The notes below the pieces were generated by a model. The model had not been told where the DNA came from, made no database searches, and was given only the letters and a program-made list of their open reading frames with translations. The position numbers were made by a program, and so were the translations under genes. Positions 970 through 58,179 of a DNA stretch of 64,000 bases are shown piece by piece (the first letter of the stretch is position 1; each line of letters starts with the position of its first letter). Source of the stretch: Cetorhinus maximus (taxonomy: Eukaryota); NCBI RefSeq assembly GCF_964194155.1, contig NC_135916.1, positions 1,054,001 to 1,118,000 of the forward strand, read 5' to 3'.

Positions 970-1180
970 TTCTCTCTCCCCCCGCCCCCCCACCTTAAAC
1001 CAGCTTATATTTCACCTTTCTCCTAACTATGCTTCAGTTCTGCCGAAGGGTCGTTATGACTCGAAACGTTAACTGATTTCTTCTCCACCGATGCTGCCAG
1101 ACCTGCTGAGTTTTTCCAGGTAATTCTGTTTTTGTTTTGGATTTCCAGCATCCGCAGTAGCTTTTAGCTTTTTGTTTTTA
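970..1180 (+). mobile_element. Solo Penelope pLTR fragment; duplicate at ~41956-42166
   Basis: Near-identical to 27950-28147. Confidence 0.85.
1035..1075 (+). ncRNA. Minimal type I hammerhead-ribozyme-like motif in pLTR; duplicate at 42021-42061
   Basis: CAGTT-CTGCCGA-a-GGGTC(gttat)GACTC-GAAA-CGTT-AACTG; core deviates from CUGANGA at A6. Confidence 0.6.
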
Positions 1181-3067
1181 AGTAGGTATATTATTCAATC
1201 TGTATCTGTTTTTCTCCACTGTTGCAGGTAAGTGTGAGATAAGACTATATCTGGACTTTTAATGAAACGTGTTGGAATATATTTTTATGAATCCCTCAAC
1301 ATAGCAGTATTTGTTAACCTTTGGTTTAACCTATAACATTGGCTTCATGTGTTTTGTAGTCACAGGTTATATTCAATAGTTGCCTGGGATTTGTGGAATC
1401 ACATTTGATTTTTAGCTCTGTGAAAACAATTGTGAATATTTAATCAGATACACAGCCTCATATGTAATTTGTTCATTTTGTATAAAGGGATTGCTGTTGA
1501 ATCTTTACTGATGCTGCCATTTTTGGTGTGAAATATATAGATATGTCTAAATTCTAAGGGACGGTGCTGCAATTTATTCTGTCCCTTCCAATCAGTTATT
1601 TCTTGTCTAATGAGGCTCAGAATAATTAATTAATTTCTGACCAACGCAACACAATATAATTAAATCTGATATTTGGTGTGTTTTCTGTGAACATTTTGAT
1701 TGATGTATGCTCCTCTCATCTAGGTTACTGGAAATAAAAACAAACAACAACAATAAAATCAGACTCTCCTGCTCAGTTTGTATCTTGCATTGAAAAGTTG
1801 TCACTTCCCTTTGAAACAGTGTGGGAATGAACAATTAATTGGTTGTGACTGTGGACATAATGACCTGGAAGTTTCTCTGCTCTCAGTGAATGGTCCTGTA
1901 CCTAGCTAGTGTTGCAGCTAGCTCACTTTTTAACCTTGTTCATTTTGTGACTTTTGAAGTTGTCACTATTATCTACCTTTGTCACTAACATCATCATGCA
2001 GCAGGAATACCCATAGCACAGCTTGTGAGCTAAGATTTGTTTGTCTCTTTTCATGTTGTACCTTTCAACCATTATTCATTCCTGATATTTCGACTGCAGA
2101 TTGATTTATTAATTTGGAGGCCTGTACTATTATTTCAGTAATTTTTCCATGTAGAAATATGAAGGTGAGTTTCACTTTTGGAACACATGGATGAAAATAG
2201 TATTTTGCCATTTTTATTTGAACAGTGATATCCTTCTTTGCTGGACCACTCCTCTGATTGCATTGACAATCACTGGGATGCATTTAAGTATTTTATTCTG
2301 TATCTATTGTTTTCTGAGATGAAAAGGTGAAAGCTTTGTAACTGTCAATCTTTAAGTCTCATAACAATGCACATGTCGAATTTTGTTTTGTCTGATTTTT
2401 CTCATAAATAGTTAAATGCCAGGTTTGTTGTCATCTAAGGCTGTGTTTCTGTCTCCATCTGCCGGTTTTTTTTATGAGTGTGAGTTTTAAACTGTCGGGT
2501 GTGCTTTCACATATGTGAGTATGATTTCCGTTTCTTAATCTGCTGCTGTATTTATCAGTTTCTGGGATTCTTAATGTGACTGTGACTCAGTAACTTTCAG
2601 GTTCTGGTAAGTGATTGCTGGTGTTAGAATGTCCATGTGAATGTCTTGTTGTTTTACTTTCTAGCACTTCCTTACTTGCTATTGAGCTTTTTTCCCTCAG
2701 TCTCTCCATTAGTTTGTGGCATGTGAATGTGAGTGCTATTCTGTATCTGTCAATAACTGCATTGTGAGCGTGAGTCATAATTGCAATTGCCAGTTTTAGG
2801 TATGTGTCTGGAATGCAAATGTGAATTTTACACTGCAGTTCTCACTTTTGAATGTCTGAATGTATGTTTGAGATTACTTCACTGACTTTGACAATGTAAC
2901 TATGATTATTCTCAGTACATTTTCTATGAGTATAGCCTACATTCTTTATCTATTAGTGTCTTATCAGCAAATGTAAGACTTATTCAAAATCTGTCAGTAT
3001 TATAGTATTGTCATTGTGCGATTGATGATGTGGCTGTGCATGCCTGCTTTTATCTGTGTTTGGGTCT

Positions 3068-3127
3068 GTGTGAGAGACAGAGAGAGAGAGCATGTCTGAA
3101 GATGTGTGTGTGTGTGTGTGTGTGTGT
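3068..3127. repeat. (GA)n/(TG)n microsatellite; copy at ~44054-44110 is 6 bp shorter
   Basis: Visible. Confidence 0.9.
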
Positions 3128-3734
3128 TCATGGTGTTTTTTTTGTGTTTTCGTTCCTTCTGTCTCTCTAATGTGTTTATGGACTTATCTTTTTATTTGTC
3201 ATTGTTCAATATAGAAATGTGCATGTTGATTGGTACTCATAATTATCTGGCATGATGGCATGGATTCATTCTGTACATGTCCAATTCTTCCCTTTTCAAT
3301 TTTGATAGTCTTGGCTGTAAGCAGTAACTGTTAGGTTTGGTGTATGTAAGTTTGCATTTTATCAGTAGTTGACCTTTTCAGATATGAGACTGCGGTATTC
3401 AATCTACCCGCTCATTTCCAGTTTGTGTTGTGAGCATGTCTTTTACTTTGTTAAAGTGAACATGTAGTTTCTGAGACTCTGCATTTACAGTGAATCTGTT
3501 GTATGAATGCCGATTTTAGTCTGTACCAATTTGATTCAGTTTCTTGTTTTATTTTCGGTGCTCAAATCTCTGTTTTACAAGTGATATATTCCATTCTGCT
3601 TGTGTCAATTTTTGATGAACTGAACAATAGTTTTTGTGAGATTCTGTTGATATTTTGTATCTGAATATGGGATTTCCTTTGTACATGTCAGATTTTAGCA
3701 TGAAGGAATGTTTATCAACTGCAACTAAGCAAAG

Positions 3735-3960
3735 CCAAAATATTCTCGGCTGGATGTTGGAAACCTCAAAAAAAGGGAAGAAAATTGCTGAGAATACTGA
3801 GCAGGATTGTCAACATCTGTGGAGAAAAAGCTGAACTGCCCGTTATCTGAAATTCCTGATGTGATGGAAGGTCATTTGCCTGTAATGTTCACCCTCAATC
3901 TTTCTAAACAGTTGTTGCCGTCCCTGCTGAATATTTCCAGCATTGTCGGTGTTTTTTCCT
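3735..3960. mobile_element. Old palindromic pLTR-derived element; orthologs at ~21728-21962 and ~44715-44940
   Basis: aattgctgagaatactgagcagg...tgtggaga and inverted cctgctgaatatttccagcatt. Confidence 0.6.
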
Positions 3961-4803
3961 CCCCCTGTCTGTGTTAATTCCCAGCTGGTAAATATCACTC
4001 TGCACCTGACAGAGTCTGATACTTACATTTCACTTTTATTCTGACAGAATCTCCAAGTGCATTTTCCTCTCTGACTCTCATTTATGTGTGTGTCTGAATC
4101 ATTGTCGATTTTACGGTGAGCCTGTTAGCCGACAATATTTATGAATGATGGCCACCTTTCAGTTTTCCATTTAGTATGAAAGCATGAACCTATTTTCCAT
4201 GTCCCTCTCGGTTTATGGAATGGACTGATTTGTTTTGATCAGCAACTTAAAGTTTTTAATGCATGTTCATGTGTGTTTTTACAGTAGCCATCAAGATCAG
4301 CGATGTGTGTAGCCATGCTTCTCCTATTTTGAAAAGGCTTATAGAAAATTTGGTTTTATTCTGCATCTCTATGTCCCTGGAATGTGTCTGTGGTTTTACA
4401 ATGTAATTGTCTGTCTCTGTTATGGGAATGCAGGATAGTTCCGTGTCGGTCAGACTCTCCTCTGAGAGTGGTGTTATGTTATTCCCTGCTTTGTGAGTTA
4501 AGTTTTAACCATTTTTTGTTTGTAGTGATCTGTCGAAGTGAGTGTTTGTGACAATATTCCTCTGGCATGTCTATGCACGCCTCCATTAACAAAAATATAC
4601 TCTATCTTGATTTCTGATATTGAATAAGATTTTTGGAATGGAATTTAACTTGTTGCTTTGCGAGAACTTTGCATGTATTCATGAATAATTCTGCAAACAT
4701 TAATTGTCTGATATTTAAGTTGTAGCTAATGATCTACTCTTGTGACATGAATGGACTGCCCTTCAATCTGATAATGTTTGCGATTTTGGACTGAAATTGG
4801 TGC

Positions 4804-5296
4804 TGTTGTGCTTTCTTCTAAGAATCGAATACAGTGACAAAGATACAAGTTTAGGATTGTTTATTAAAGGGAACAACAGGGAGGGTCTGCTCCCTTTGAA
4901 TGCCTAAAACAGAACTCTACTGATTACAGGATAACAATCTTTTTTAAACACTAAACCGTTCACGTACACATTACACTATTCTAATTCCAATCTTGGCAGT
5001 ACATAATCACATGACAATCAGATGCCGCCAGTCCGCGGAACATACATTTACTTTCCCAAGCAGGGCCTCTTCATCTCGTTCTAGCCTGGCTCTATCCCTG
5101 ATACTCTTTGTCATTACACTGATGTGTTTATCTTCATCCCTCTTCTATCTCCTAACCAGTTAATCCCTTATGATCCCAAAGGTCTCCCTAGAGAGAGCTG
5201 CTGATACCAGCCCTTATGGTGTACAAGTTTTCACTGGAGAATTTTGCTGACCTTTGGTTTCACTAAAAACATAGAAATCGCTGCTTACCTCTTACA
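4804..5296 (-). mobile_element. Solo LTR (~493 bp); duplicate at 45804-46296
   Basis: TGT...ACA ends, flanks GTGC/GTGG, minus-strand AATAAA near 4860, absent from paralogous site ~24308. Confidence 0.7.
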
Positions 5297-5998
5297 GTGG
5301 GTCTACCATTCAGCAGTACCGAGTAGCAGTGTTTTGTGGGGAATATAATTCAGTCTCCCCTGTGTGTTAGCCTACTGGATTGATCATGTGTATCAGGGTT
5401 TGAGTTCAATTCGAGTCTGACTATTTCTGCTCTGGGTGATGGTCACAGTGATGTTCTGTCTGTATCTGTGCACTCTTGGAGTAGGATCGTACCTGCTGCC
5501 AGTTAGAAGGAGATAGCTGCACCTCTGTGTTGGCTGGTGGAACTTGAGATTGAAACTGACCCCTTCATTAACCTGCCAGAGAGGAAGAAAGATATCTCCA
5601 GTAAGGCAAAATCAGCTGAGGTCAGTAAAAGGCAATAGATCAATGTAATATTTCAACTGATAATCAATTTCAAAAATACTGTACATATCATGGCGGACAA
5701 CGAAAAAACTACAGTGTCTGATTCCACTTCTAACTATTGAGTGAGATTCAGAATCAACCCGCATCTGCACTGCTCCAAGTGTGTCACTACGCGGGCCCAG
5801 AGATATTGGTACAGGACAGATTTCAATTTCCAGCTCCCTTTGTAAGAACCGCCAACTCAATCTAACTGTGGAAGGTACAATGTTTCTTTGAGACGCCTCA
5901 GCTGAACAGCTGGTGCCTGCAACACGTGTCGTTAACATTACTGCTCCACTCCTTACTCTCCGTCTGTTTCCACGATTCACTGTCCAAAAGCCAACACG

Positions 5999-6460
5999 TT
6001 GTGTGAATCAGCAGCTAAACTTGGAATATGCATTACAGGATTGAGGGGGGATATCCCAATAGTTTTCAATTGCAGCTTGCTCAGGTTCTGTCTCCCTCAG
6101 CAGGGCCACACACAGCCCCAGAAAGGCCTCTCCCCGACCACCAGCTCACTCCAAGTTCCGGAACACGTTCCCGCTCCGCTCCGCCTCTTACAAACAGCCC
6201 CCCGGTTCCCCCTGAACTTACCCCGAGTCAATGATGATTTCTGTGTCCACACTGACAAACCGGTGCCCTGCTGGAATCAGAACGCTGTTTACTCGCTTAC
6301 CCGGGCCCCAGTATTTCCATTTCCGTCTGTTTGAAACAAAGGTCTTCCGCTCGCTGAGTGAAAGGACGTCAAGGGCAGTGGTTGGTGGGAAGGGAAGCGC
6401 GCATGCGCCCGACTAGTCACCGAGAAATTCCAAAACGCAGGGCTGCAATGCGCATGTGCT
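5999..6460 (-). promoter_or_regulatory. Conserved CpG-rich promoter/first-exon-like element with NRF1 sites
   Basis: GCGCATGCGC 6399-6408, second near-site ~6449; minus-strand GTAAG donors at 6300 and 6221; highly similar copies at 24989 and 46999. Confidence 0.55.
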
Positions 6461-7319
6461 GTTGGAAACTAACTAAGAACAAAACCAGGTCATCTGGTCC
6501 TTCCCCATGTCAATTTCCTCAGCCTTGAGCATAGGAATTGGAATGTGGGGAACGGGCAGAGACGTTACGAGCAGGAGGGCCATCCCTGTATTAAATCCAA
6601 ACTGGGCGTCTTTGCTGTTCATTCGACGGTCTCCGCAAATTAATCCACATGTCGAATAGGTCTGTTTGCTGTTATAGCTCAGAACTTAATATCAGATCGT
6701 AAAAGTCTCAGGTTAATATAATCAGATTGAAAATGTCAGTCACTGACTGTCGTATTCAACAATTTTAGTCGAAGATTTCCCGAGAGTTCCAGAGTTTATA
6801 GAATGTTATATTTCATTATTATTGCCTCAACACCACTCAGTTTCCTGGACTGTGGGACAGAAATGTATCTGCCTCTCCTCCAATGTTAATGAGAGATGAG
6901 GCCTGGTATTTCGCACCGCTGGGGGATCTATAAGCCTTATCGATCAGCTTCAGAATATTCAGTGTTTCAAAAAGAAAACCTCTCAATCTTCTAAACTCCA
7001 ATGAAGATTATTCCAACTTGATCATGATTTCCTCACCAGTCAACAACTGGAAGCTGCTCATGAACATTCCCTGAACTGTATCAAGGGATCGATATTATTC
7101 AGTTGTCCCCCATCCCTCTACTGCTGTTGATGTGCATGTTACTAATGTTACTGATAGGATTATATAAACTGATACTCACACTCCTCCCATGTGAGGTGAG
7201 GGACTGTCACTGTTCATTCTCCTCTCAGAAATTCAAGTATGACATTTCATTAGATTATCTCCAGTCAAACATCGAATTCTGCTCTGAAAAACTCTGTCAC
7301 TGTCGGGAACGTGACGATG

Positions 7320-10300
7320 GGAGAAGTCATCGCAGCCAACGCGACTCAGGAGGGAATCGAGGAGGACCCACTGTCAAAGAATGGAATAGTCCCAAGCATT
7401 ACATTGCTGTAGTGTTTCCATCCCTCCCTCATCCTCAAACCTAAAAAACAGAGAGAGGGGAAGAGGCAGTGTCTCCAGGAGTGCACCAAATCTGCGAGGG
7501 ATACTCTTCTGAAAGTGGAATTTAAAGAAAAAGCAGCTGATTGCTGAGTAAATCCTGGGAGCAGACTCGGAGGGAGGAGAACCGAAGCGGTGAGTGTAAA
7601 CCTAGCTTACCTTGAGGATTCGCAGTCTTGTCTCTAGGGAGCAGACTCGGAGGGAGGAGCAGCAGAGTGGTGACCTCGGGGCACAGAGTAACTGAAGCCA
7701 AAACTGAAAAAGTGACGTCACATGAAAGCTGTGACCTGATTGGTTGGTAGGAAATCTGCACCAAATTTGAAAAAAAAAACACGGCAAAGCTAATTAATAA
7801 ATTAATTGTCTAAGTACAGATGGCTGGGCAGGTGATGTGCTGTAGCTGTATGATGTGGGAGCTGGCAGATCCCAATGCGAGCCACAGTGACCACATCTGC
7901 AGCAAGTGTTGTTGCTGGAGGAATTCCGGCTCAGAATTGATGAGCTGGAGTCCGAGTTCTGGACACTGCGGCTCCTTCGGGAGGGGGACAGTTACCTGGA
8001 CGCTTTGTATGAGGAGGCGGTCTTACCTGGTAGATTAAGTACCTCAAATCCGGTCAGTGGTCAGGGTCAGCAGGGTGTGACTGCAATTGAGGCAGGTAGA
8101 GGGATCCTGTGTTCAGTAAGTGAGGACCCTCAGCTCTTGACCTTGTCCAACAGGTACGACGTACTTGCTTCCTGTGTGGATGGGGAACAGGGCTGTAGGG
8201 AGGATGAGCCAGCTGACCACGGCACCGTGGCACAGGAGGCCCTTCAAGAGGGGGGAGCACAGAGACAAGTGGTAGTTGTAGGGGATTCTATAATTAGGGG
8301 AATTGATAGATTCCTTTGTAAGCAGGATCGAGGGTCCCGCATTGTATGTTGCCTGCCCTGTGCCAGGATGAAGGACATCTCTGACCGGCTTGAAAGGATA
8401 TTGGAGAGGGAGTGGGAGGATCCAGTTGTTGTGGTCCACGTCGTGACAAATAACATAGTTCAGACTAGGAAACAGGACCTGTTTGGGGATTATCAGGAAC
8501 TAGGAACTAAATTAAAGAACAGGTCCTCAAGGGTTATAATCTCTGGATTACTACCCGAGCAACGTGCAATTTGGCATAGGGACACAAGAATAAGGGAAGT
8601 AAACACGTGGCTAAAGGAGTGGTGCGGGAAAGAGGGGTTCCATTTCGTGGGGCACTGGCATCAGTATTGGAACAGGAGGGATCTGTACCATTGGGACGGT
8701 CTCCACCTGAACCGATCTGGGACCAATGTTCTAGCGAAAAGCGTAAGTAGAGTATTCAACAGGACTTTAAACTAGAAAGTGGGGGGGGAGGGAAGGGTAA
8801 AACTGCAAGAAATATGACTAATGGGAAACAGAGCAGCAGGTTAGCATGTGGGGTGGTGGATTCAACTTCATGGAAAATTATGAAAAAACTGAAAAGAAAG
8901 GAGAGCCCAGGAGAGGCTATTAAAGTCTCCAGAACACAAAATAGGACAGAGTGTTTGGAAAGGGCTAGGAATCTAACTTCAAGCACATCAGATAAAGGGA
9001 CGACAATGAGAAAGGGGACGGGAAATACAGGACTGAAGGTGTTGTATCTGAATGCACACAGTATACGAAATAAGGTAAATGAGCTTGTGGCGCAGATTGA
9101 AATTGGCAGGTATGATCTGGTGGGCATTACGGAGACATGGCTGCAAGGGGATCAGGGCTGGGAGCTAAATATCCAAAGATATACAACCTATCGAAAAGAT
9201 AGGCAGATTGGCAGAGGAGGTGGGGTTGCTTTGTTAGTAAGAAATGAAATTAAATCGATAGCAAGAAATGATGTAGGGTCAGAGGATGTAGAATCTGTGT
9301 GGTTAGAGTTGAGGAACCACAAAGGTAAAAAAAAACATAATGGGATTTATGTACAGGCCTCCGAACAGTAGTCAGGATGTGGGCCACAAGATACACCAGG
9401 AGATAGAAAAGGCGTGTAAGAAAGGCAAGTTTACAGTGATCATGGAGGATTTCAATATGCAGGTAGAATGGGAAAATCAGCTTGGTAGTGGATCCCAAGA
9501 AAAGGAATTTGTGGAATGTCTACACGATGGCTTTTTGGAGCAGCTTGTGGTGGAGCCCACTAGGGAACAGGCAATTCTAGATTTAGTGATGTGTAATGAG
9601 GCAGATTTGATAAGGGAGCTAAAGGTGAAGGAACCCTTAGGAGGAAGTGACCATATTATGATAGAATTTACCCTGCAGTTTGAGAGGAAAAAGCTGGAAT
9701 CAGATGTAACGGTATTACAGTTGAATAAAGGCAACTACAGAGGCATGAGGGAGGAGCTGGCCAGAATTGACTGGGAGATAAGCCTAGCAGGAAAGACAGT
9801 GGAACATCAATGGTAGGAGTTTCTGGGAGTAATTTGGGAGAAAAAGCAAAAATTCATCCCTAGGAAGAAGAAGCATACTAAAGGGAGGACGAGGAAACCA
9901 TGGCTGACAAGGGAAGTCCGGGACAGCATAAAAGCTGAAGAGAAAGCATACAATGCGACGAAGAGCAGTGGGAAACCAGGGGATTGGGAAGCCTACAAAG
10001 ACCAACAGAGGACAACTAAAAAAGAAATAAGGAGGGAGAAGATTAAATATGAGGGTAAACAAACAGTAATATAAAAGAAGATTGCAAAAATTTTTTTTAC
10101 ATATATAAAGGGCAAGAGAGAGGCAAAAGTGGATATTGGGCCGCTGGAAAATGACGCTGGAGAAGGATTAGTGGGGAACAAAGAAATGGCGGAGGAACTG
10201 AATAGGTACTTTGCGACAGTCTTCACAGTGGAAGACACGAGTGACATGCCCAAAGTTCAAGAGAGTCGGGGGACAGAGGTGAGTATGGTGGCAATTAACA

Positions 10301-11305
10301 ATAAGAAGGGGCTAGGAAAACTGAAAGGTCTGAAGGTGGATAAATGACCTGGACCAGATGGATTACACCCCAGAGTTCTGAAGGAGATAGCTGAAGAGAT
10401 AGTGGAGGCGTTAGTGGTGATCTTTCAGTAATCACTGGACTCAGGGATGTTCCCAGAGGACTGGAAAATCGCTAATGTAACCCCCTTGTTTAAGAAGGGA
10501 GTGAGGCAAAAGTCGGGAAATTACAGGTTTAATAGCCTGACTTCGGTCATTGGTAAGATTTTAGAGTCCATTATTAAGGATGAGATTTCAGAATACTTGG
10601 AAGTGCATGGTAAAATCGGGCAAAGTCAGCATGGTTTCATCCAAGGGAGGTCATGCCTGACAAATCTGTTAGAATACTTTGAGGAGGTAACGAGTAGGTT
10701 AGACAAAGGAGAGCCAATGGATGTTATGTACTTGGACTTCCAGAAGCCTTTGACAAGGTGCCACACAGCAATTTTGGGCCCCGTTTCTCAGGAAGGATGT
10801 GCTGGCCCTGGAGAGGGTCCAGAGGAGGTTCATGAGGATGATCCCAGGAATGAAAAGCTCAACATATGAGGAACGTTTGAGGACTCTGGGTCAATACTCG
10901 ATGGAGTTTAGAAGGATGAGGGGGGATCTGATTGAAACTTACAGAATACTGAAAGGCCTGGATAGAATTGACGTGGGGAAGATGTTTCCATTAGTAGGAG
11001 AGACTAGGACCCAAGGGCACAGCCTCAGAGTAAAGGGCAGACCTTTTAGAACAGAAATGATGAAAAACTTCTTTAGCCAGAGAGTGGTGAATCTATGGAA
11101 TTCAATGCCACAGAAGGCTGTGGAGGCCAGGCCACTGAGTGCATTTAAGACCGAGATAGATAGGTTCTTCATTGGTAAGGGAATCAAAGGTTACGGGGAG
11201 AAGGTGGGAGTATGGGGTTGAGAAACTTATCAGCCATGATTTAATGCGGGGCAGACTCGATGGGCCGAATGGCCTAATTTCTGCTACTATGTCTTATGGT
11301 CTTAT
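7320..11305 (+). mobile_element. CR1-clade LINE, near full length, decayed, internal RT deletion
   Basis: ORF1 Cys motif + SGNH esterase (GDSIIRG...DGLHLN); ORF2 APE (YLNAHSIRNK, GITETWL, SDH) and RT fragments; (tcttatgg)n tail; absent from the orthologous site near 29190. Confidence 0.93.
7820..8772 (+). pseudogene. CR1 ORF1 (Zn-finger + SGNH esterase), frameshifted near 5' end; copy at 48820-49772
   Basis: ORFs 7820..8038 and 7906..8775 join into one protein. Confidence 0.8.
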
Positions 11306-12251: not shown

Positions 12252-12908
12252 ATGACCGATACTGCAGCCGCCGAAACGGCTCCTCCAGCCGCTCCCGCCG
12301 CCCAGGTCAAGACTCCCAAGAAGAAGAAGAAGGCGGCTCCCCGGAGCAGTGCAGCCGGTCCCAAGCTGGGCGAGCAGATCCTCAAGGTTGTGGCGGATTG
12401 CAGCGATCGCAAGGGGATGTCGCTGCCCGCGATCAAGAAGGCGCTGCGCGGCAATGGGGTGGATGTGGAGAAACTCGGCTCCCAGATCAAGCAAAGCATC
12501 AAGAGGAATGTGAAGAATGGCTTCCTGGTTCAGGTCAAGGGCACGGGCGCCTCGGGCTCCTTCAAAGTCCCTAAGAACCCAACCCCGGGGAAAGTGGGAA
12601 AGAAGGCGAAGGCAGCAGCTGGCAAGAAATCTCCAGTGAAGAAAGCGGCAGCCAAGAAGGTGACAGCAAAGAAAGCAACGGCCAAGAAGACTCCAGTCAA
12701 GAAAGCAACGGCCAAGAAATCTCCAGTCAAGAAAGCAGCGGCCAAGAAATCCCCAGCGAAGAAAGCAGCGGCCAAGAAAACAGCCAAGAAGGCGGCAACT
12801 CCCAAAAAGCCGGTGAAGAAAGCAGCCCCCAAGAAAAAGTCTCCGGCCAAGAAGGTGACGGGCGTCAAAAAAGTGGCGATAGGGAGGGCCAAGCCCAAAA
12901 CGAGATAA
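12252..12908 (+). CDS. H1: Linker histone H1 (218 aa)
   Basis: Globular domain ending KGTGASGSFKV, K/A/P-rich tail with S/TPxK repeats, intronless, H1 box upstream, stem-loop downstream. Confidence 0.97.
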   Translation: MTDTAAAETAPPAAPAAQVKTPKKKKKAAPRSSAAGPKLGEQILKVVADCSDRKGMSLPAIKKALRGNGVDVEKLGSQIKQSIKRNVKNGFLVQVKGTGASGSFKVPKNPTPGKVGKKAKAAAGKKSPVKKAAAKKVTAKKATAKKTPVKKATAKKSPVKKAAAKKSPAKKAAAKKTAKKAATPKKPVKKAAPKKKSPAKKVTGVKKVAIGRAKPKTR

Positions 12909-13762: not shown

Positions 13763-14083
<321 letters not shown>

Positions 14084-14808: not shown

Positions 14809-15619
14809 AGAAGGGAAAACTCTGCTTTTGGCGCTCGGTTTGGACTATACTAAACATGCATTTCGGAATAATTGTGGAAGAGAGTTTGAATGAAAGTGGG
14901 GTATTGGGTAAATCCATTAAATTGAGGTCCACCGGGCAAGGGCACATGGTTGTGATGTACAGTCAAAGGCAAAATGTTATTCAAACGCAACACATAATGA
15001 AGCCGGAATGAGAGAGGGATGCAGTTTCCGCCAGTTCATTTTACCTAACACGATAATTAGAACATAATCGTTAATCAATGTAAATTTCGACAGATACACG
15101 GTTTAAATAAACGGTCGGCAAGCCCTCCTCCCCCATAAAGACCCCACCGCGCACCCTTTCACCAGCAGAAACAGGAATCACACCATTTTCTCTTTAACAT
15201 CTATAGCGCGTTGACATTAAAATACCGAGTCGGTTGATGAGGTTTCGATGTGAGTGCCAAAATTTCCCCCATCAATAGGAGTTTAATTCCGCCCTGTTGT
15301 AAACCGATCAGGGAAAGAATGAGAATTTAATCCACGTTCCAAAGCAGGAAGTCGGAGCCTGGTTAATTTAAACCGTTATTGTTCTTGAGGTTTACATGTG
15401 TCCGAAAAATTTTCGCCCATCAATAGGAGGCATTTCCAGCCCGTTATCAACCGAGCAGGGAATGAATGAGAATTTAATCCGAGTTCCAAAGACAGGAAGT
15501 TGTATCCGGGTGAAAAATGGGGCGCACAGACATCGAGGTTTACGATTTTTTTTATATTTTGAGATTGAATTTATCTGCCTTCAAACTCGGTTTAATTAAT
15601 TTCCTTTTTACTTGTTCCT

Positions 15620-16240
<621 letters not shown>

Positions 16241-16283
16241 ACTGAACCCTACCCGACTCTAGACTTACACCGAAAACCACAAA

Positions 16284-16299
16284 GGCTCTTTTAAGAGCC
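16284..16299 (+). terminator. Histone 3' stem-loop (H3)
   Basis: GGCTCT-TTTA-AGAGCC, AAAGAGCTG downstream. Confidence 0.95.
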
Positions 16300-18928
16300 A
16301 CCAAGTCGGTCAGAGAAAGAGCTGCGATCTATTGTTAAAAGATGTCACCTCTTCTGCATATAATTTCCATTTTTTTTCACCCTATACCTTTCCTTTGCTA
16401 CCTTTGTTGGGCTTTGGAGAGACGGTTATTTTATTATTCCAGGAACGTTTTCCCAAGTAGTGACAATTGAGGAAAACACACATCCCATTGGCTTCTGCAC
16501 ATTATCAGTCAGATCTCTGTTTGAGTGACCAATGTGGAGGATCCACGCATTCACTCATTTTATACCTTCGGGAGGAATGGCGGTGCGGTCAATGCTTATT
16601 GGTCCATTTTATTACAGCTGCTAATGTTCTTCCTATTACCAATCAGATCCCTGCATGATTCACCAACGTGGAGACGTCACGTGGTTGACGTCCGAAAGTA
16701 ATGGCGCCAAATCGTCAGTTACCGACCCATTATATATTTCAAATTTGCAAGACCGCCAAAAAAATACGGCACAAAAATCGTAATAGCTAATTCCCTTTTT
16801 AAATTATAACAATGCGCGATTCACCCAACTCTCTCCATCTTTTGGACATCCTGCAGTTTACCTGTATCTGTTAGTTTCTGACTTTTGAGTGCGGAGTTTC
16901 ATGTATCTGACATGAAGCAGAAATTAAAGCGCCAATTTTGCAGGAACCGAGCCTTTGTTTTATTGAACATTGAAAAGCCCGCCTAAACGTGTGTAAAACG
17001 AATAATTAATTTGATACAGAATATTGCGTTAACATATAACACAGTCATTTCCATAGTTTAAAAGATTGGTCTCCCTTATTGCACTATATCATATTTGATC
17101 ACAAGCCCCAAATTGGCTATTAAAATCCGGAATCCATTCGGGTTTAATCTCGGACCGTTTTTCCAGTCCTCTTAGTCTATGTTCAACATATTCTGGCATG
17201 TGAATATGGGCTTTTGTTAGGACTCTCTGCACCTTGTATATCATTGTCCATTCTTTGAATATGATGCTCACTTTTCAACTTTTTAATGTAGCATGTGAAC
17301 ATGGATTTTAATCAGGACTTATCAGTTGTTGACTGTGTATAAGTGTCATATTCCTTCTGTATGTATCAGCCTCTGGTGCTGTGTATGAATCTTGCTAACC
17401 TTTGTTATGTGCCTGTTGTGGTTCTGGAAATGGCTGCAGAATTAATACTCTAAATGTAAATTTTGGACACTGTGGGCATTGAATTCGTTTTTTTTTCACC
17501 ATATCTGTTAAGAATTGATGAATTGTGTGTTTTATTATGTGTTTTCACTTAGTTGAATACTGTGATAGAGTTGAATTAATCCTGTACCCACCAGTGTGTT
17601 GTATTGTATGTGGAGGAATACATTTTGCCCTCTGTGTAGGACTCTGTACTGCTATGCATGGAAGAGTGCATTCATTCTATCTGCAATATTTTCTGGTACT
17701 ATCCGTGAGAGGGATTCCATCTGAATCTGTCAATATCTGGAACTAAATGTGAGAATGAAGTTGATACGGATCCAGCCAAGCTGTTTGAGAGCAATATTTT
17801 TTTGTGTGTCAGTCAATCTGGGCAATTTTATGTCATTCTGGGTTTTTGGCTCTGCGTCCTTAAGACTTTTCTAAAAAGATTTGTGTATGTCTGTGGCTCC
17901 TGCTCTCCATTTAATTCCCTGCTACTCTGTATGTGGTTGAATAAAGCATTGCTTCCCAATATATTGTTAGTTTCTTGCTCTATATTTATTAGTCACTTAA
18001 ATTGATGGAGTGTGTATTCACTCATTTAGCTGACAGTGAGTGTGATTCATTCAAATTATCCCTGCATCTGCTATTGCATGGGAATGTGCCACTCTCTGCA
18101 TGTCTTTCAGTGCCTAGTACAATGCATGATTTTGGGATTAAATTGTACATGACAGCGTCCGGTAAGGTATGTGTTTGTGGAGTTATTTCTATAATGTTAT
18201 GGCCTCTATGATTCTATATGAATGAGATTATTTTGGTATACTTCAGTTTCAGGTAGGCTAAGTGAATGTGGGGTTCATTATTTATCTTTCAGCCTTGGTG
18301 CTTTCCAAGAGTAAGTGCTAAGGGTTAACAAGAAGTGTTCAGAGAACTTACATTATGATTCATAGTGAGAATATTGATATGGCACGTGTTGTGTATTAAG
18401 GTCTGTATTCATTAAAATTATATTTTACCTTTATTTCAGATATTGTATGAGATCTTTGGTGTGGAATTTAATATGTTGTTCTGTGGGGCATCTGGGTACA
18501 TTCTTAGCTTCACATATACAGCTGATTGAAATGCACAGATTTAATGCTAAGACTCCACTCTTGTGAAAGGAATGGATTGTCTTGCAATCTGAAAATGTTT
18601 TTGGATAAGATTGATGGGCCTACCATTCTGTGACACTCAATGAGTGTGAATTGGGGATAATATTCTGTCTCCCCTGTCGTGTTTGAATGTTGTATTGAAC
18701 ATGTCTGCCCATTTTTGGTTTAACCTATAACATGGGTTCTACCAATGTTATAGCCATAGGTTATATTCTGTAGTTGCATCGGAGTTCAAGAATGGTACTC
18801 AATTTGTAGCTCTGTGAAAACAATTGTGAATAGCTACATCCCCTTCAATCAACTATATAGCCTCACATGTAATTGATGCAGTTTGTAGTCAAGGAATTAC
18901 CATTGTACCTTTATTCATGCAGAGCTTT

Positions 18929-19410
18929 TCATAGAATCACAGAATCACACAGTGCAGAAGAGGTCCTTCAGCCCATCGAGTCTGCAACAACACGTGAGAA
19001 ACACCTGACCTACCTACCTAATCCCATTTACCAGCACTTGGCCCATAGCCTTGAATGTGATGATGTGCCAAGTGCTCATCCAAGTACATTTTAAAGGATG
19101 TGAGGCAACCCGCCTCCACCACCCTCCCAGGCAGTGCATTCCAAACCGTCACCACCCTCTGGGTAAAAATTTGTTCCTCACATCCTTCATAAACCTCTTG
19201 CCCCTCACCTTGAACTTACGCCCCCTCGTGACTGACTCTTCAGCCAAGGGGAACAGCTGCTCCCTATCCACCCTGTCCATGCCCCTCATAATCTTGTACA
19301 CCTCGATCAGGTCGCCCCTCAGTCTTCTCTGCTCCAACGAAAACAACCCAAGCCTATCCAACCTCTCTTCATAACGTCAATGTTTCATCCCAGGCAACAT
19401 CCTGGTGAAT
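18929..19410 (-). mobile_element. CR1 LINE 3' fragment
   Basis: ORF LGLFSLEQRRLRGDLIEVYKIM; tandem tail at left end. Confidence 0.9.
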
Positions 19411-20899
19411 ATTTTGTTAGACTGCTATGAAATATATAGCCCTGTCTAAATTCTGAGGCACTGATTTGCATTTTATTAAGTACCTTACAGTGAGCTATCT
19501 TATTTTCTGTTCTGGCTAAGAGCAGTTAAATAATATCTGATGAGAATGAAAGAGTGAATATGATATTTGTTGTGTATTCTGTTAATCCTTTGATATTCTG
19601 CTGGATTAGATGCTAGATGGATATATAAAGCAAGTTAATGAAGACTCACCGGATCTGTTTGTCTCTTGGATTGAACAGTTGTCTCTTCCCTTTGAAACAG
19701 TGTGGGAATGAATGATTATTTATTTGTGACAGTGGACATAATGACCTGGCAGCATCTCTGTTCTCTGTGAGCGATGCTGCACCTACCTTGTGTTGGAACA
19801 AGCTCACTTTTCATCTTGCTTATGTTATAACTTTTATAGTTATCACTATTATGTATCCACCTTAGTTACTAGCCTCATCTGTCAATGCATAGCATTGTTT
19901 GTGAGCTGAGATTTGTTCACTTCTTTTTAAATTGATCCTTTCAACCATTTTATGTTTACTATTGTTTCCACTCCATATTAATTTATTAATTTGCAGGCCT
20001 GTACTATTATTTGAGTAATGTTTCCATTTTTAAAAATGAGGCTGAATTTCACTTTCATAACACATGGGTGATAAGATTATTTTGTCATCTTATTTGAATT
20101 AGGATCCCCTTCTTTTCTGCAATTAATTCTATGAATTGCATGTAAAGTCATTGGGATACATTTAGGTATTTTAACCTGTATCAAATATATTTTTTTCTCT
20201 GGAATGGAAGTGTGATGTTGGCCTGTAACTCTCAGGCTGTATTTGCAATTACACTGCACGTTAATTTTGTTGTGAGTGAATGACTTTTTAAAAAATCCAT
20301 CCATGTCTTTTTTTTTTAGCATAAGATGTGTTTCATTCTCTATTTTCCAGTTTTCTTTTAGATAATGAGTGTAAGTTCTGTATAATTGTGTGCATTTTCA
20401 GGTATGTGAGTATGATTAGTTTTTCTCCTCCAGTTGTATTTATTAATTTCTCAGAGGCTAAAATGTGACTTTGCCATGGTACCTGTCAGTTACTGGTAAG
20501 TGAGTGCTGGTGTTACACTGTCCCTGTGAATATCTGGTGTATGAGCATTACTTTGTAGCACTTCATTACTTGCAAGTGACTTTTTTTTCTCCCTCTATCT
20601 GTCAGTTTGTGGCATGTGAGTTTGAATGTGTGTGTTGGGCTTACTTGGCATTTGACTGTTTTGTTACGTGTCTGCTAAGTTAATGTGAATATACACTTTT
20701 TTTTTCAGTTTTTAAAATGTAAACATGTGTTTGAGTCTTATTCCCGGTCTCTGACATGAAAATGAGGAAATACCATAAATGTTTCAGATTTTTTTTCTGT
20801 ATGTGTCACATATATTCTTTAATCATTCGTCTCTTGTAAAGAAATTCTAAGATTTACTCAGATTCTCTCAGTAAAGTTATGTCATTGTGTGATTGTAGA

Positions 20900-21160
20900 A
20901 CTGTGTGTGAGCCTGTCTGTGTGTGTGTGCCTGTCTGTGTGTGTGCGCCTGTCTGTGTGTGTGCGCCTGTCTGTGTGTGTGCGCCTGTCTGTGTGTGTGC
21001 GGGGGTGTGTGTGTGTGTGTGTGTGTGTGCGCCTGTCCTTGTGTGTGGGTGTGTGTGCCTCCCTGTGTGTGTGCGCCTGTCTGTCTCTTTGCGTGCCTGT
21101 CTGTGTATGCGCTTGTCTGTGTGTGTGCGCCTGTCCTTGTGTGTGGGTGTGTGTGCCTGT
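20900..21160. repeat. TG-rich micro/minisatellite (18-bp unit gtgtgtgtgcgcctgtct)
   Basis: Directly visible tandem units. Confidence 0.95.
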
Positions 21161-23489
21161 TTATGCTCCTTTTGTCTCTCTTATGTGTGAATGGACTTTT
21201 CTCTCTATCTGTCATTTTTCAATATGTACTTGTGCACATTGACTGGCACTCACAAGTATCTGGCATGGTGTTAAAGGCTAATTTTGTACATATCCAGTTT
21301 TAGCCTTTCTCTTAGGATAGCCTTGGCTTTAAGTTGTAATATTCGGCTTCTGGTATGGAAGTGCACATTTTACCTGTACCTGACCCTTTTAGATATGAGA
21401 TTCTGGTACTGAAATTGTCTGCTCGTTTCTAGCCTCTGATGTGAGCATGGCTTTTACTTTTGTTAAAGTTAGCATTTTTAATGAGACTCTGCATTTACTG
21501 TGAATTTCAGTATCTGATCTACGATTGTGGATTTTAATCAGTCCTGATTTGTTTCTGTTTGGGATTGATATCTCTGTTATAGGAGTGATATATTCCATTC
21601 TGTTATTGTCTCTTTCTAATGAGGTGAACGATCCTTTTTGATCAGAATCTGTTTAATTTGGTGCCTGAATATGGGATTTGCTTTGCAATTGTCAGATTTT
21701 GACATGAAGGAATGTTTATAATCTGTAGCAAAAGCAAAAACAAAATATCTACAGGTGGATTCTTGAAATCTCAAGAAAAAGGAAACACAATTGCTGGGAA
21801 TACTGAGCAGGCCAGACAACATCTGTGGAGACAAGAGCTGAATTACCCTCCACCTGAAAATTCTGATATCAGAAAAGGCCATTGAACTGTGATGTTCACT
21901 CTCATCCTGTCTCCACAGGTGTTGGCTTCCTTGCTGAGTATTTCCTGCATTGTTGGTGTTTCTTCCTCCCCCTGTACGTGTTAATTTCCAACAAGTGAAT
22001 ATGGCATCACTGATCACCTGCCAATGTCTGACAAATATGTTTCACTTCTATTCTGACAGGGTTTCAACGTAGAATTTGGTGTGCGTGTGTGCACATGTGC
22101 ATGTTTCTAGAAAGGAAGAAATTTATTTTTTCTGCACTTTACATAGAATGCTATGCGAATGTCAGTTCAGCCTGTATCTGTCACTTTTTAACATGTTACT
22201 ACGAGTCTTATTCTTTACCTGTCTATGAATGGGGATTTTAAAATGCACCTAGTTATTTGCTGCTGTGTGACTTTTTTCTTTTATAGATGTTTGGAATTAA
22301 TTATGGGTTTTTAAAAAAAATATATACGTAATTCAAAAATTATCTGAAAGAACATTTCTAAATCGCCATCACAAAAAGTGCAATCAGATTCAACTTTTAC
22401 ACATGGATCAAGAGTTGCTTCTATACAATCAATGAATATTACAATCAATTCAATATGGTCATTACAGGCAGTCAGACAGCGCAATGATATTGGAGTTATC
22501 AACATACATCATGTTGCACTTTTGAGGTGTTTCAATACTATTACTATTCAGTGCAGATATTTTTTTGTGAGCCGTACAGCTTTACTCTGGGTATTTAACT
22601 CTCGGTAATGCACTTGTGGCTATTACTCTGCACCTGCCAGTGCCTGACATGTGAGGATGCATTTTGCATTCACTGTTGCTGACATGTAAAGCAAATTTTA
22701 CTACTTAACTCTCAGTTACTGGTATATAGATGTGCAGATTTTATTCTGTATCTGTAATTCTGTGATATGTCAGTTTGATTCATTTTCCTGTTGTTTGGCT
22801 CAGGGTCAGAAATATGAGCATGGAAAAAAAATATGTTGAAACACTTAGGCTATTTTAAATGAATGAGAATTTAATTATTTGCTTTCAATCCCCAGAATGA
22901 GAATGTGCCCTATGCTTATCATATTCTTGTATGTGAGTATTGTCTTTCCTCCAGGTCTGTATGCACCTTGTAGGTCATGGTCGGTTTTGCTGTGAACATG
23001 TCAGCCTGTATTACTTGATTGTGATGTTCACATTGCAGCTTTCAATTTAGTGTGTGAGCATGGACCATTCGCTCCCTCCCCCCAACCCCTCAACCCAAAC
23101 CTACAGATTTTGATGCATGTTCATGTGTGATTTTACCGTAGCTATCAACGTCTGCTTTCTGGGTATCCATTTTCTTCCTATTTTTAAAATTCTGTTATGG
23201 GAAACTTGATTTTATTCTACACCTCTCTATCGCTGGTATGTGTCTGTGGTTTTACAATGTAAGCATCTGCCCCTGTCATGGGAATTCAGGTTTCTTCTGT
23301 ATCTGTCAGTCTCTCCTATGACAGTGCTGTAATGTTATTTGCCGTACTTGTCAATATCTGCTTTGTCAGTTAAGGTTTAACCTATCTTGTTTGTAGAGAT
23401 CTGTTGATATAACTATTAGTGAGTATATTGACCTGGCACGTGATGTGTATGTGTGTCTGTCTTAATGAATATGTACTTTATCATTATCA

Positions 23490-24115
23490 GGGGGAGGCGA
23501 TGGTGTTGTGATGTTGTCATTGTTGTCACTATTAATCCAAAGACCTAGGGTAATACTCTGGGGACCCGGGTTCGAATCCTGCCGAGGTTTGGCGGATTGT
23601 GAATTCAATAAAAATCTGGAATTAAAAGAATAATGGTGACCATTGTCGATTGTTGTAAGAACCCACCTGGTTGACCAATGCCGGAAACCTGTTGTCCTTA
23701 CTTAGTCTGGTCTACATGTGGTGTTGTGTTAGACCCACTTGGCCACTCACTTGTAATAAACTGCTAAAAAGTCACAAAAATGGAATGGAATCAGATGGAC
23801 CACCCGACACTGACTGAGGCACCGCAAACAAAAATGACTAAATTCAGCCCTGTCGACCCTGAAGGTAGATGGGAACACCTCCAGCTAGAATTTCCACTCC
23901 AAGTCACTGCACGATCCTGACTTGGAAATATATCCTGTTCCTTCACTGTCGCTGGGGAAAAATTTTGGAACTGCCTCCCTAACAGCAGTGTGGGTGTACC
24001 TACACCACGTGGACAGCAGGAGTTCAAGAAAGCAGCTCACCACCACCTTCTCAAGGGCAACTAAATGGTGGCACAGCCAGAAAAGCAAACATCCCGTGAA
24101 TGAATTTAAAAAAAG
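23490..24115 (+). mobile_element. tRNA-derived SINE joined to a LINE-type 3' end
   Basis: B box GGTTCGAATCC ~23569; ends tgaatgaatttaaaaaa; interrupts sequence that is contiguous at 18430-18450. Confidence 0.7.
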
Positions 24116-24988
24116 ATATTATATGGGATCTTTGGTGTTGAATTTATGGTGTTGCTTTATGAATGCTGGGTGCACTCAAGGATTAATTCTGTAAATTTCA
24201 ATCAGCTTTAATACCTGGTATTTAAATTACAGGCGATGTTCTACTCTTGTGACATGAAAGGGCTGCCCTTCAATCTGATAATGGCTGTGATTGTTGACTG
24301 CAATTGGTGGACCTGCAATTCAGCAGTACTGAGTAGGAGTGTACTGTAGTAAAATTATTCCACCTCCCCTGAGTGTCTGACCATTGGATGGAGCATTTGT
24401 ACCTGGGTTTGAGATCAATTTGAGCCTGACTATTTCTGTTCTCGGTGATGGTGGAGCTGATGTTCTGTCTGTATCTCTGCACTCTCGGAGTAACATCGTG
24501 CCTGCTGTCAGTTAGAAAGAGGTGGCTAGACGTTTATTTTTCCTGGGATATCATCAGCTTGAAACTGATCCCTTCATTGATTTGCCTGGAGGAAGAAACA
24601 TAAGTCTTGTAACACAAAATCAGCAGAGGACATTGAAAGACAATAGGTCAACATAATCTTTCAACTGACAATAAATAAAAAAATATATATCTAGATGCAA
24701 AACATAACGATACAATAAATACTACAGTGTCTGATTCCACGTCAGCAACCTGCTTTGGTAGTTTTCAAGCAATTGAGTGACACTCAGAAACAATCCACAT
24801 CTGTATGGCTCCAAGGGTGACACTCCCCGAGGATACAAAGACAGTTCAGATATCAATATCCAGCTCTCAGCCGGTGCTAAAATGTTTATATCTTAATAGC
24901 TGGTGCCTCCAAAGCGTGACCCCTACATGGTTACTCTCCTCCTTACTCTCTGCCTGTTACCACTGTTCACTGTCCAAATGCCGACAAG

Positions 24989-25480
24989 TTGCATGAATCA
25001 GCAGCTATACTTGGAATATGCATTACAGGTTTGAGGGGAGAAAATCCCAATAGTTTACAATTGCAGCTTCCTCAGGTTCTGTCTCCCTCAGCAGGGCCAC
25101 ACACAGCCCCAGAAAGGCCTCTCCCCGTCCACCCGCTCACTCCAAGTTCCGGAACACGTTCGCGCTCCGCTCCGCCTCTTACAAACAGCCCCCGGTTCCC
25201 CCTGAACTTACCCCGAGTCAATGATGATTTCTGTGTCCACACTGACAAACCGGCGCCCTGCTGGAATCAGAACGCTGTTTACTCGCTTACCCGGGCCCTA
25301 AGATTTCCATTTCTATCTGTTTGAAACAAAGGTCTCCCGCTCACTGAGTGAAAAGCCCTCAAAGTTCAATTCTTGGGAGAAATGAGGGGCGCATGCGCTC
25401 TTCCAGCCATGTCTGAGAAAACTGAGGGCAGCAATGCGCAAGCGCTTCCCTGGAACAGACGTCACAGATAAGACGTCATT
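24989..25480 (-). promoter_or_regulatory. Second copy of conserved NRF1 promoter/first-exon-like element
   Basis: GCGCATGCGC 25389-25398, GACGTCA x2, donors at 25290 and 25211. Confidence 0.55.
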
Positions 25481-38527: not shown

Positions 38528-38921
38528 TCACTTGGTCTTGGTGGCTGCAGAGGCGCCGGTTTTCTTGGGCAGCAGCACGGCCTGGATATTAGGCAGCACC
38601 CCGCCCTGAGCGATGGTCACCCCTCCCAGCAGCTTGTTGAGCTCCTCGTCGTTGCGGACGGCCAGCTGCAGGTGCCTGGGGATGATGCGGGTCTTCTTGT
38701 TGTCCCGGGCCGCGTTGCCGGCCAGCTCGAGGATTTCAGCCGTCAGATACTCCAGCACGGCGGCCAGATAGACCGGGGCTCCGGCACCCACTACGCTCAG
38801 CGTAGTTCCCCTTCCTCAGCAGCCTGTGAACGCGGCCCACCGGGAACTGCAGTCCGGCCCGGGAGGAGCGAGACCTGGCCTTGGACCGAACTTTCCCACC
38901 GGTCTTTCCTCTTCCAGACAT
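38528..38921 (-). pseudogene. H2A: Histone H2A with 1-bp insertion frameshift (pseudogene or assembly error)
   Basis: 394 bp vs 393 bp in the 57736 copy; extra base at 38792 (cccacTacgctc vs cccacacgctc); split into two ORFs; promoter and stem-loop intact. Confidence 0.88.
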
Positions 38922-40029
38922 TGTAACAATCTCACAAGCACTTTCACAGAGAATGCTGATATCCGCCTTCTTTCAGTTCTCTTATACCCTCAGGAGGAAT
39001 GGTGGTGCGCTCAGAGCTGATTGGGCAATTATATTATAGCTCATAATATTCTTCATGTTACCAGTCAGATTTCTGCCTGACTCACCAATGCGGGCAAGCA
39101 ACGTATGAAGTCGGAAGTTAAGGGCGCCAAATCATCAGTTAAACAAACGATTATATATTTCAAAATGAATAAGAGCGCCAAAAATTTAATCGATGGAAAT
39201 ATCGCACAGAAATCGTCTTAGCTAAACAAAGGACAATTCCTTTACAAATTGTTCTAATGCTTAACATTAAAGCAGTTCTCTTACAGAATGTTAGAAGGTT
39301 TCTCGCTCTCGTTTCCTCGTCTACAGTTTACCCGTAACTATCAGTTTCTGGTTTTACCTGTGGACAAGAGGACAATAAAGGATCCAATTTTCCAGAATCC
39401 AAACTTTTGTTTTTTTCATGTTCGTGAGTGTCAAAAGCGGAGTGCACATTTTTTGGCTTAAATCTGCCAGTATTGAAACTGAGGCTTCCTACACCGCCAG
39501 GGCTGATACGGAATGAATTGATCAAATCAACTTTTATAATGCTGGGGAGGGATAGCATCTTTGAGGGTTCAAAGATAGACTCTGCTTGATTACATTTATA
39601 CAACAAGGCAGGGTCTACCCTGAAGCAGCAAACATACATTGTATTCCAATCCAACAATACAAATGAAAATCCTCTGCAGGCTATGTGATTCTGGGATTAA
39701 GCCTAATCATCATTATTTGTTACTTAAATGTAGTTTTCGCTCCCTGAAGCTTTTCTTCCGAAATTGACATCAACGATAGATGTTTTTGTTTTTGTCTCTG
39801 TAACATTCAGTTTTAAGTCAGTTTGGATTTTATCTGGTGCATGTCAATCCCTGGAGAAAATTTTATATTTCATTCGACATATATTGCTGCCACCATAAGA
39901 TTATGCTTCTATTCTCATTTTAATCCCCACATTATCTGTTAAACCCTGCTATGGGTGCATGGAATATCTGTCTGTTCATGATAAATAAATGGGAACTTTA
40001 ATCTGAAATGTATAATTTTCTAAAAAAAT

Positions 40030-55174: not shown

Positions 55175-55477
<303 letters not shown>

Positions 55478-56755: not shown

Positions 56756-57223
<468 letters not shown>

Positions 57224-57267
57224 ACTCACCCTACCCGACTCTAGACTTCAACACCGAGAACCACAAA

Positions 57268-57735: not shown

Positions 57736-58179
<444 letters not shown>

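Follow-up and report, generated by a model that had tools for sequence, protein, structure and literature searches.

Histone units and spacers of the window

The window, i.e., the whole stretch of 64,000 nucleotides analysed here, comes from contig C39 of the shark Cetorhinus maximus, and all comparisons were made within this one genome (GCF_964194155.1). Its forward strand carries genes for histone H1 (12,252–12,908) and H3 (15,830–16,240), each with a 3' stem-loop, and for H4 (13,772–14,083). An intact H2A gene is encoded on the reverse strand (57,736–58,128), as the upstream neighbour of the last spacer, and H2B has been lost from the histone units of the window. At 16,560–16,800, on the reverse strand, lies an orphan H2A promoter, without the H2A coding sequence found at 57,736–58,128, as indicated by the alignment of 15,369–16,339 and 16,560–17,170 with 56,347–57,323 and 58,189–58,818, respectively. 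An earlier, sequence-only reading of this DNA placed the start of a repeat array just upstream of an H2A promoter; the promoter is indeed present at 16.5 kb, but there is no H2A gene behind it. Compared with the type of unit found in the second histone cluster, on contig C32, a junction at 17,156–17,342 has lost ~4.5 kb, with H2B and the first part of the array among it, and a cleaner H2B-loss junction at 39,441–39,617 lacks ~1.36 kb (the H2B gene and its promoter) near 39,515.

Decayed arrays of a 41-bp minisatellite, all on the forward strand, occupy four spacers: A (24–4,475, ~53 units), B (16,805–23,386, ~78 recognisable units in patches, with a weak patch at 24,399–24,495), C (41,010–45,510) and D (58,443–62,441, ~43 units), the last of which runs on past the end of the window. 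Spacer A is a paralog of B at 67–75% identity, and C is a 99.4% duplicate of A and therefore not an independent case; the recurrence of the array proposed for four spacers is seen in all of them. Within B, the array contains an inserted high-copy interspersed repeat (18,930–19,410, summed DNA contig depth >10^6), a TG microsatellite/18-bp repeat on the forward strand (20,902–21,145) and a high-copy short interspersed repeat (22,320–22,520), and further high-copy interspersed repeats lie at its end (23,500–24,110). The contigs of a run guessed to be RNA (X5) cover interspersed repeats only (7/30 and 5/30 bins), which speaks neither for nor against expression of the array.

The array is closed by a CpG-rich promoter-like element on the reverse strand (25,020–25,401; CpG observed/expected 0.67 vs 0.27 in the array), with a second and a third copy on the same strand at 6,030–6,410 and 47,030–47,410. 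Donor-like GG/GTAAG sites are present on the minus strand of this element, which also contains GCGCATGCGC at 25,389; a variant lies at 25,436, and we take both to be NRF1-like. The core of the element is 95–98% alike across 37 copies on C39 and had no matches in a metagenome scan.

The 41-bp array

Tandem Repeats Finder reported no 41-bp array in the window. Plain autocorrelation, suggested as a check on the claim of a hidden tandem array of ~41 bp, gave an equivocal answer: z was 1.9–4.3 at lags 40/41, against shuffle maxima of ~2.7–3, and one control region reached 6.6 at lag 40. A held-out circular profile was much more informative. It was trained on the array at 864.2–868.7 kb of C39, ~200 kb outside the window, where the autocorrelation z is 9.5 at 41 and a de novo fit is best at 41 among periods 38–43, and was then applied to the window; the consensus of this training array has the same base as the motif of the sequence-only reading at 37 of the 41 places. 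Spacers A, B and D gave 58, 85 and 45 half-unit matches, compared with 12.3, 14.7 and 8.8 across 100 shuffles (with maxima of 25, 25 and 17), i.e., a 4.7–5.8-fold excess, with a spacing peak at 40–41. Pairs of matches at lags 39–43 (8, 18 and 11, vs ~0.1 in shuffles) were confined to one strand, with none on the reverse strand of the spacers and none in five control regions, and the hidden array is thereby borne out. Furthermore, all 33 matches to the original motif with up to 14 mismatches in the window are on the forward strand, the six near-complete units first picked out were each recovered at, or within 6 bases of, their reported places (6–11 mismatches in 41), and the reported motif spacings of 40–41 are found in the sequence.

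That the entire multi-kb spacer is array is true of about half of it: Viterbi cover of the masked spacer at 16.85–24.3 kb amounts to 2948 of 6054 bases, compared with 0–192 in six shuffles, the other half being inserted repeats and unrecognisable DNA. Inverted half-sites of the form TGTCAG..CTGACA, also proposed for some units, did not withstand scrutiny, as the exact palindrome does not occur in spacers A, B or D, and its 5 loose versions depend on a minority base.

The copies are arranged head to tail at a fixed period of 41, as follows from the de novo fit, the autocorrelation and the held-out spacing peak, and the array is a fossil member of the minisatellite/satellite class. Identity of the units to the consensus is 66–71% in 10 of 10 arrays, whether the neighbouring H2B is intact or dead, a uniformity that is partly set by the method given that chance segments reach ~60%. 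At this identity, the copies have not been kept alike in the manner of concerted evolution; the only homogeneous sub-arrays are local 43-bp and 40-bp ones outside the window. These are local re-expansions of single worn units, showing that slippage or unequal crossover on array units still occurs.

Three genome-wide pattern scans placed 109 of 113 matches on the two histone-cluster contigs, C32 and C39 (13/14, 42/44 and 54/55 per scan), with no matches to reversed-pattern controls, in agreement with the expected co-location of a 41-bp profile with histone clusters; the array is thus not a dispersed element. Two of the four remaining matches are on C408, which carries a broken H3 and an H1. Matches on C10 (a 1000-bp satellite that is partly similar) and on C12 and C15 (no array there) were set aside as unrelated, and none of the three orphan copies of H2B, located on C1, C11 and C13, has an array. 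The array lacks the high copy number and genome-wide spread of a dispersed transposable element and forms tandem tracts between histone gene cassettes.

Descent and rate of change

The window spacer is colinear with the spacers of the C32 cluster at 66–78%, which supports the view, already put forward from the sequence, that the decayed minisatellite predates the duplications of the histone unit and was inherited through them. We propose that the 41-bp repeat expanded once, long ago, probably by slippage or unequal crossover, between H2B and the CpG promoter-like element of an ancestral histone cassette. It would have persisted by hitchhiking in whole-unit duplications, with gene conversion presumably limited to the histone genes and the element, leaving the spacer to decay. 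An attempt to date the array with the mutation rate given for the epaulette shark, 7x10^-10 per generation (PMC10587355), was abandoned because 0.41 substitutions per site translates into ~6x10^8 generations, an impossibly great age.

In four families of paralogs, parsimony events per column for array and non-array DNA are 0.166/0.172, 0.111/0.128, 0.195/0.291 and 0.194/0.193; overall, non-array DNA is 14% faster, mostly through one family. By comparison, H2B coding sequence changes at 0.048 and the array at 0.185–0.237, i.e., ~4 times faster. The array mutates about as fast as the adjacent non-coding DNA and is therefore most likely carried along as a passenger, without a working role. No class of positions within the unit stands out in retention, and the longest, most continuous arrays (~25 and ~13 kb) are flanked by an H2B pseudogene on one side and a decayed element on the other. 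Together with the rate close to that of the flanks, these observations lend no support to the suggestion that a role in structure or as RNA has preserved the array. Overall, this is a real, heavily decayed 41-bp repeat, which in our view probably arose by an ancient single expansion beside H2B and has since been a neutral passenger of cassette duplications.

There are small deviations from neutrality, all of 1–2 s.d. by our own arithmetic. Consensus-matching positions change slightly less than expected (O/E 0.93, vs 1.11 for mismatching positions), changes number 34 vs 46.8 expected in poly(A)-like hexamers and 79 vs 91.4 in donor-like hexamers, and reversions to consensus number 139 of 322 vs 120.6 expected. 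Hypermutable sites and wrong polarity would mimic these deviations, but weak selection on the array is another possible source. The persistence of at least some array next to every one of the 52 testable elements also counts against strict neutrality, although these copies descend from few lineages.

The CpG element, alternative readings and known systems

The module H2B–array–CpG element is a single ancestral unit, and the lead beyond a probably neutral relic is the adjoining element. This could be a promoter directing transcription into the array, toward H2B. The array would then serve either as a termination field shielding H2B/H2A or as the transcribed part of an unstable non-coding RNA, a reading that we regard as unlikely. 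On the strand that the element faces, each unit has a hexamer resembling a poly(A) signal, and splice donors are few; the other strand is rich in donors and has few poly(A) signals, which would promote read-through from the H1, H4 and H3 genes.

Several observations are in line with a promoter of this kind. Order and orientation are fixed, the array lying beside the element in 52 of 52 testable copies, which descend from few lineages, compared with 8 of 55 in which the outer side reaches the density of an array. A core pattern of the element has 144 matches genome-wide, the first 100 listed being all on C32 and C39. The element retains its CpG content and, in C32, changes more slowly than the array (0.088 vs 0.194). 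In simple hexamer counts against 50 shuffles, donor-like hexamers are in excess on the T/G strand of A, B and D (32, 64 and 24 vs 13.6, 27.0 and 10.7) and A(A/T)TAAA on the opposite strand (24, 41 and 16 vs 15.3, 18.5 and 7.3), and both hexamer types show the slight shortfall of changes described above.

However, the strand bias is a direct product of the monomer and decays along with it, and the array has no substitution asymmetry of the type that germline transcription can leave (ratios 0.90–1.06). Between C39 and C32, the element is only 51–73% identical, about the same as alignable array, whereas third positions of H3 are at 88–92%, so that the identity within each cluster may be due to conversion. 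The poly(A) strand, as read off the consensus, has no GU-rich downstream element; the CpG element has no match in Rfam, and its fold is not unusual (z −0.10). An extended version, in which every shark histone cassette contains a sixth, non-coding transcription unit, with an age of hundreds of millions of years and weak selection distributed across many units, with the CpG promoter pointing toward H2B and the array, through the opposite splice-donor and poly(A) content of its two strands, acting as a one-way valve (upstream polymerase stopped before H2B, histone read-through allowed to pass), appears to us more doubtful still.

We consider it very improbable that the array works as DNA, by phasing nucleosomes or binding a factor and so helping to build the histone locus body. 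Restriction to histone clusters would fit such a role, 41 bp corresponds to roughly four turns of the helix, and each unit contains CTGTCA, presumably a TALE-homeodomain-type site. Also, 41-bp repeats are known in birds, namely PO41 and CNM (PMC4301066; bioRxiv 10.64898/2026.03.19.712899), and a repeat element is described as nucleating the histone locus body in Drosophila (PMC5588930). Nevertheless, indels and insertions interrupt the phase of the array (cover 23–89%, lag peaks faded by 82–123 in the window), the CTGTCA positions are retained at 58–82%, as is the rest of the unit, the rate is near neutral, and PO41 RNA foci are described as not overlapping with histone locus bodies (PMC4301066).

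We find it equally improbable that the array began as a tandem repeat, internal or terminal, within an old mobile element that entered the ancestral cassette a single time and had the CpG element for a promoter. Insertions of L1/Tx1-like elements into these histone clusters do occur. The succession of a CpG promoter and tandem repeats is reminiscent of the 5' regions of some retrotransposons; yet, neither the array nor the element core is dispersed in the genome scans, summed DNA contig depth of the array is ~10^2–10^3 vs 10^4–10^6 for real interspersed repeats, and nothing like the reading frame, tail or terminal repeat of a mobile element is seen in the array. Other candidates were rejected: a miRNA/snoRNA cluster (a seed near 18,310, which we take to be miR-430-like, is without Rfam support, only histone stem-loops passing the gathering score and the best spacer match having E 1.9), a micro-exon or recursive-splicing array (the invariant dinucleotides are not conserved, with the G of AG kept at 62% and those of two GTs at 50% and 72%, compared with a mean of 61% for G), and a zinc-finger or other coding repeat (the period is not a multiple of three, and there are no C2H2 arrays in the inspected regions of C32 and C408).

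As a neutral relic, the array is a marker of descent: it shows that the histone clusters of four or more contigs in this genome derive from one cassette and that a deletion removed H2B from the units of C39, and it illustrates how kilobases of old tandem DNA escape standard repeat finders. Were the element an active promoter, vertebrate histone clusters would gain an undescribed non-coding component. No printed description of the array was found in a search of the largely open-access literature on histone spacers and repeats.

Among known systems, the GA repeats of the Drosophila H3-H4 promoter likewise are repeat DNA inside histone gene units; these are short conserved dinucleotides bound by CLAMP, with a function shown (PMC5588930), whereas the shark array, lying outside promoters and evolving near-neutrally without apparent constraint, does not resemble a conserved cis-element of the histone locus body. 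The avian PO41 and CNM, conserved subtelomeric or centromeric repeats reported to be transcribed (PMC4301066), share with the array a unit of 41 bp, a likeness in length that by itself is no evidence of kinship. Chicken LL2R is described as a transcribed tandem-repeat architectural RNA that gathers splicing factors and, like the array, has one strand that is donor-rich and poor in poly(A) signals (bioRxiv 10.64898/2026.03.19.712899). In the shark, the promoter-like element faces the opposite, donor-poor strand, and donors are not maintained above background.

The satellite at newt histone loci is homogeneous, and the shark array differs from it in having a 41-bp unit that is ~32% diverged, is missed by Tandem Repeats Finder and is tied to a promoter-like element. 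The Notophthalmus satellite is abundant and, as reported, transcribed by read-through from histone promoters (PMC11602149), whereas the shark array is low-copy. In arrangement, the two are alike in being tandem repeat DNA between vertebrate histone gene cassettes, and if the shark element were an active promoter, histone-to-satellite transcription in the newt would gain a testable sequence basis.

The 41-bp tandem array of the histone spacers

The spacers between the histone cassettes (window 24–4,475, 16,805–23,386, 41,010–45,510 and 58,443–62,441) contain a decayed tandem array of ~41-bp units. The units and spacings cited in the sequence-only reading are present in the window, with 6–11 mismatches per 41, and all 33 loose motif matches lie on the + strand. 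Tandem Repeats Finder reports no such array in the window, and autocorrelation, one of the checks proposed in that reading, is marginal on the plain window sequence. A 20-letter pattern revealed far better kept arrays on the same contig, at C39:773–798 kb (+) and 860–873 kb (-). For a circular profile fitted on the better-kept arrays, with the window excluded from the training set, 41 is the best period among 38–43, and autocorrelation of the training arrays gives z values of 9.5 at 41 and 4.3 at 82. In three window spacers, profile matches amount to 4.7–5.8 times the shuffled count, and same-motif pairs at lag 39–43 number 37 versus ~0.3 expected, with none on the reverse strand and none in five controls. 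About 49% of the masked spacer at 16.85–24.3 kb is assigned to the array, compared to 0–3% in six shuffles. The match excess, lag pairs and coverage together confirm that the array is present.

Three genome-wide pattern scans yielded 14, 44 and 55 matches, 109 of the 113 on C39 or on a second contig, C32; the reversed-pattern controls yielded none. Among the 42 motif loci of C32, 23 lie upstream of a listed H2B gene, on the opposite strand and no more than 3 kb away (~1.5% by chance); the other 19 are not so placed, 12 of them lying 12–18 kb upstream of a listed H2B. Arrays adjoin histone genes on contigs C408 and C450 as well, and none was found beside three orphan H2B copies. Separately, a 1000-bp satellite on C10:52.45–52.46 Mb (L129), with copies matching at 91%, holds in its unit several short stretches resembling part of the 41-mer.

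Loss of H2B and the H2B-array-element module

The 4.0-Gb genome contains the window at G000:C39:1,054,001–1,118,000. The window cassettes are in tandem and consist of H1, H4 and H3 (+) and H2A (-), with 3' stem-loops; window 1–10,768 duplicates 40,987–51,766 at 99.4% identity. There is no H2B in the window, and in the 1.04 Mb of C39 examined, full H2B genes are found only at 936, 952 and 1,689 kb, the ~40 cassettes comprising H1, H4, H3 and often H2A, without H2B. The larger histone cluster, C32:8.7–21.4 Mb, accounts for 130 of the 150 H2B matches among those listed (1,899 candidates), in the order H1, H4, H2A, H3, H2A, H2B, array, element. C32 is the main H2B supply, and the C39 cassettes lack H2B through deletion: the C32-window alignment skips this gene, with a gap of ~4.5 kb at window 17,156–17,342 and a second of ~1.36 kb near 39,515. 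The apparent start of the array at the H2A promoter is solely a consequence of the H2B deletion. Gene decay within cassettes is also seen at 16.5 kb, where the H2A gene is absent (16,340–16,560) and its promoter left, in a frameshifted H2A (38,531–38,921) and in a 5'-damaged H4 (55,229–55,474).

In the DNA examined, 3 of 14 3' ends of an L1/Tx1-like retrotransposon place the poly(A) tail at, or at most 9 bases from, an H2A or H3 start codon (G000:C39:1,472,305 (-); C39:1,904,391 (-); contig C1447, ~39.4 kb, L160:371), a possible insertion preference for histone starts.

The window spacer is colinear with the C32 spacer at 66–78%. The array is closed at its far end by a CpG-rich, promoter-like element of ~380 bp (window 25,020–25,401, minus strand; further copies at 6,030–6,410 and 47,030–47,410), which carries two GCGCATGCGC-type sites along with donor-like sites and has neither an Rfam match nor an unusual fold. 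Its core pattern has 144 matches genome-wide. In all 52 element HMM matches whose inner flank extends for 2.5 kb or more, the array lies on the inner side in the same orientation (4 further matches had too short a flank), and decayed elements also terminate two long arrays that start at H2B pseudogenes. The element core is 95–98% alike in 37 C39 copies and the spacers of the same copies 70–85%; H3 third positions are 96–100% alike among C39 copies. Between clusters the element is 51–73% alike. The element is homogenized within C39, as the histone genes are.

Two further features of the spacers are recorded here. A 200-bp block at window 18,719–18,929 is 76–81% alike across C39, C32 and C450, a slightly higher figure than for the DNA on either side. 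The arrays at C39:773–798 kb and 860–873 kb form an inverted pair, bounded in each case by an H2B pseudogene and a decayed element; duplications of ~9 kb within them are 93% identical.

Decay, age and origin of the array

In four families of close paralogs (13, 10, 14 and 12 copies), parsimony gives 0.166, 0.111, 0.195 and 0.194 events per column for the array, and 0.172, 0.128, 0.291 and 0.193 for non-array DNA of the same families. The value for H2B coding DNA is 0.048. Consensus-matching array columns have an observed/expected ratio of 0.93, changes number 34 versus 46.8 expected in poly(A)-like hexamers and 79 versus 91.4 in donor-like hexamers, and 139 of 322 changes are reversions to consensus, versus 120.6 expected. 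These small deficits and the excess of reversions run against neutrality, yet polarity errors and hypermutable sites produce the same pattern. Across ~526 pooled units, neither splice dinucleotides nor CTGTCA positions clearly exceed the base average, and array substitutions show no strand asymmetry. Ten arrays are 66–71% identical to the consensus (chance segments score ~60%), next to intact and dead H2B alike. The 43-bp (L054:7,678–8,584 = C39:777,678–778,584; 21 copies) and 40-bp (L148:400–730) young sub-arrays are local re-expansions of single worn units, the usual behavior of tandem DNA.

The distance from the consensus, ~0.41 substitutions per site, exceeds that between clusters (~0.27–0.35, from alignment identities), which makes the array considerably older than the separation of C32 and C39. 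We consider it probable that the array arose by a single ancient expansion between H2B and the element; it would then have been copied passively along with the cassette and have decayed neutrally, with conversion keeping the genes and the element alike and sparing the spacer.

The main alternative, an unlikely one, treats the element as a promoter, with the array serving as a strand-asymmetric termination field or as the body of an RNA. Donor-like hexamers reach 2.2–2.4 times the shuffled count on the T/G (+) strand, and A(A/T)TAAA 1.6–2.2 times on the opposite strand. The bias stems from the monomer itself, with no sign of upkeep or use. Of the sequence-only interpretation, the decayed minisatellite older than the duplications stands, and retention for a structural or RNA role is not supported, the change being near neutral. 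A dispersed element is rejected because nearly all matches lie on histone contigs and because, in DNA contig depth, the array falls two to four orders of magnitude short of the interspersed repeats inserted within it; the genome-wide scatter of a transposable element, which that reading had set against a minisatellite, is not seen in the pattern scans.

Comparison with known systems

The array behaves as a fossil minisatellite and belongs to none of the functional families tested. Its likeness to PO41, judging from the available part of the source, is in unit length only (PMC4301066). Histone and tRNA genes co-cluster in a ray according to the Squalomix preprint, the accessible portion of which makes no mention of a 41-bp repeat. 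Chicken LL2R, described as a donor-rich repeat RNA (bioRxiv 10.64898/2026.03.19.712899), is a functional analog for RNA of this kind. The nearest case to the array is the newt histone loci, which are reported to contain satellite DNA with read-through transcription (PMC11602149, citing earlier work; PMC2114352, PMC12046345).
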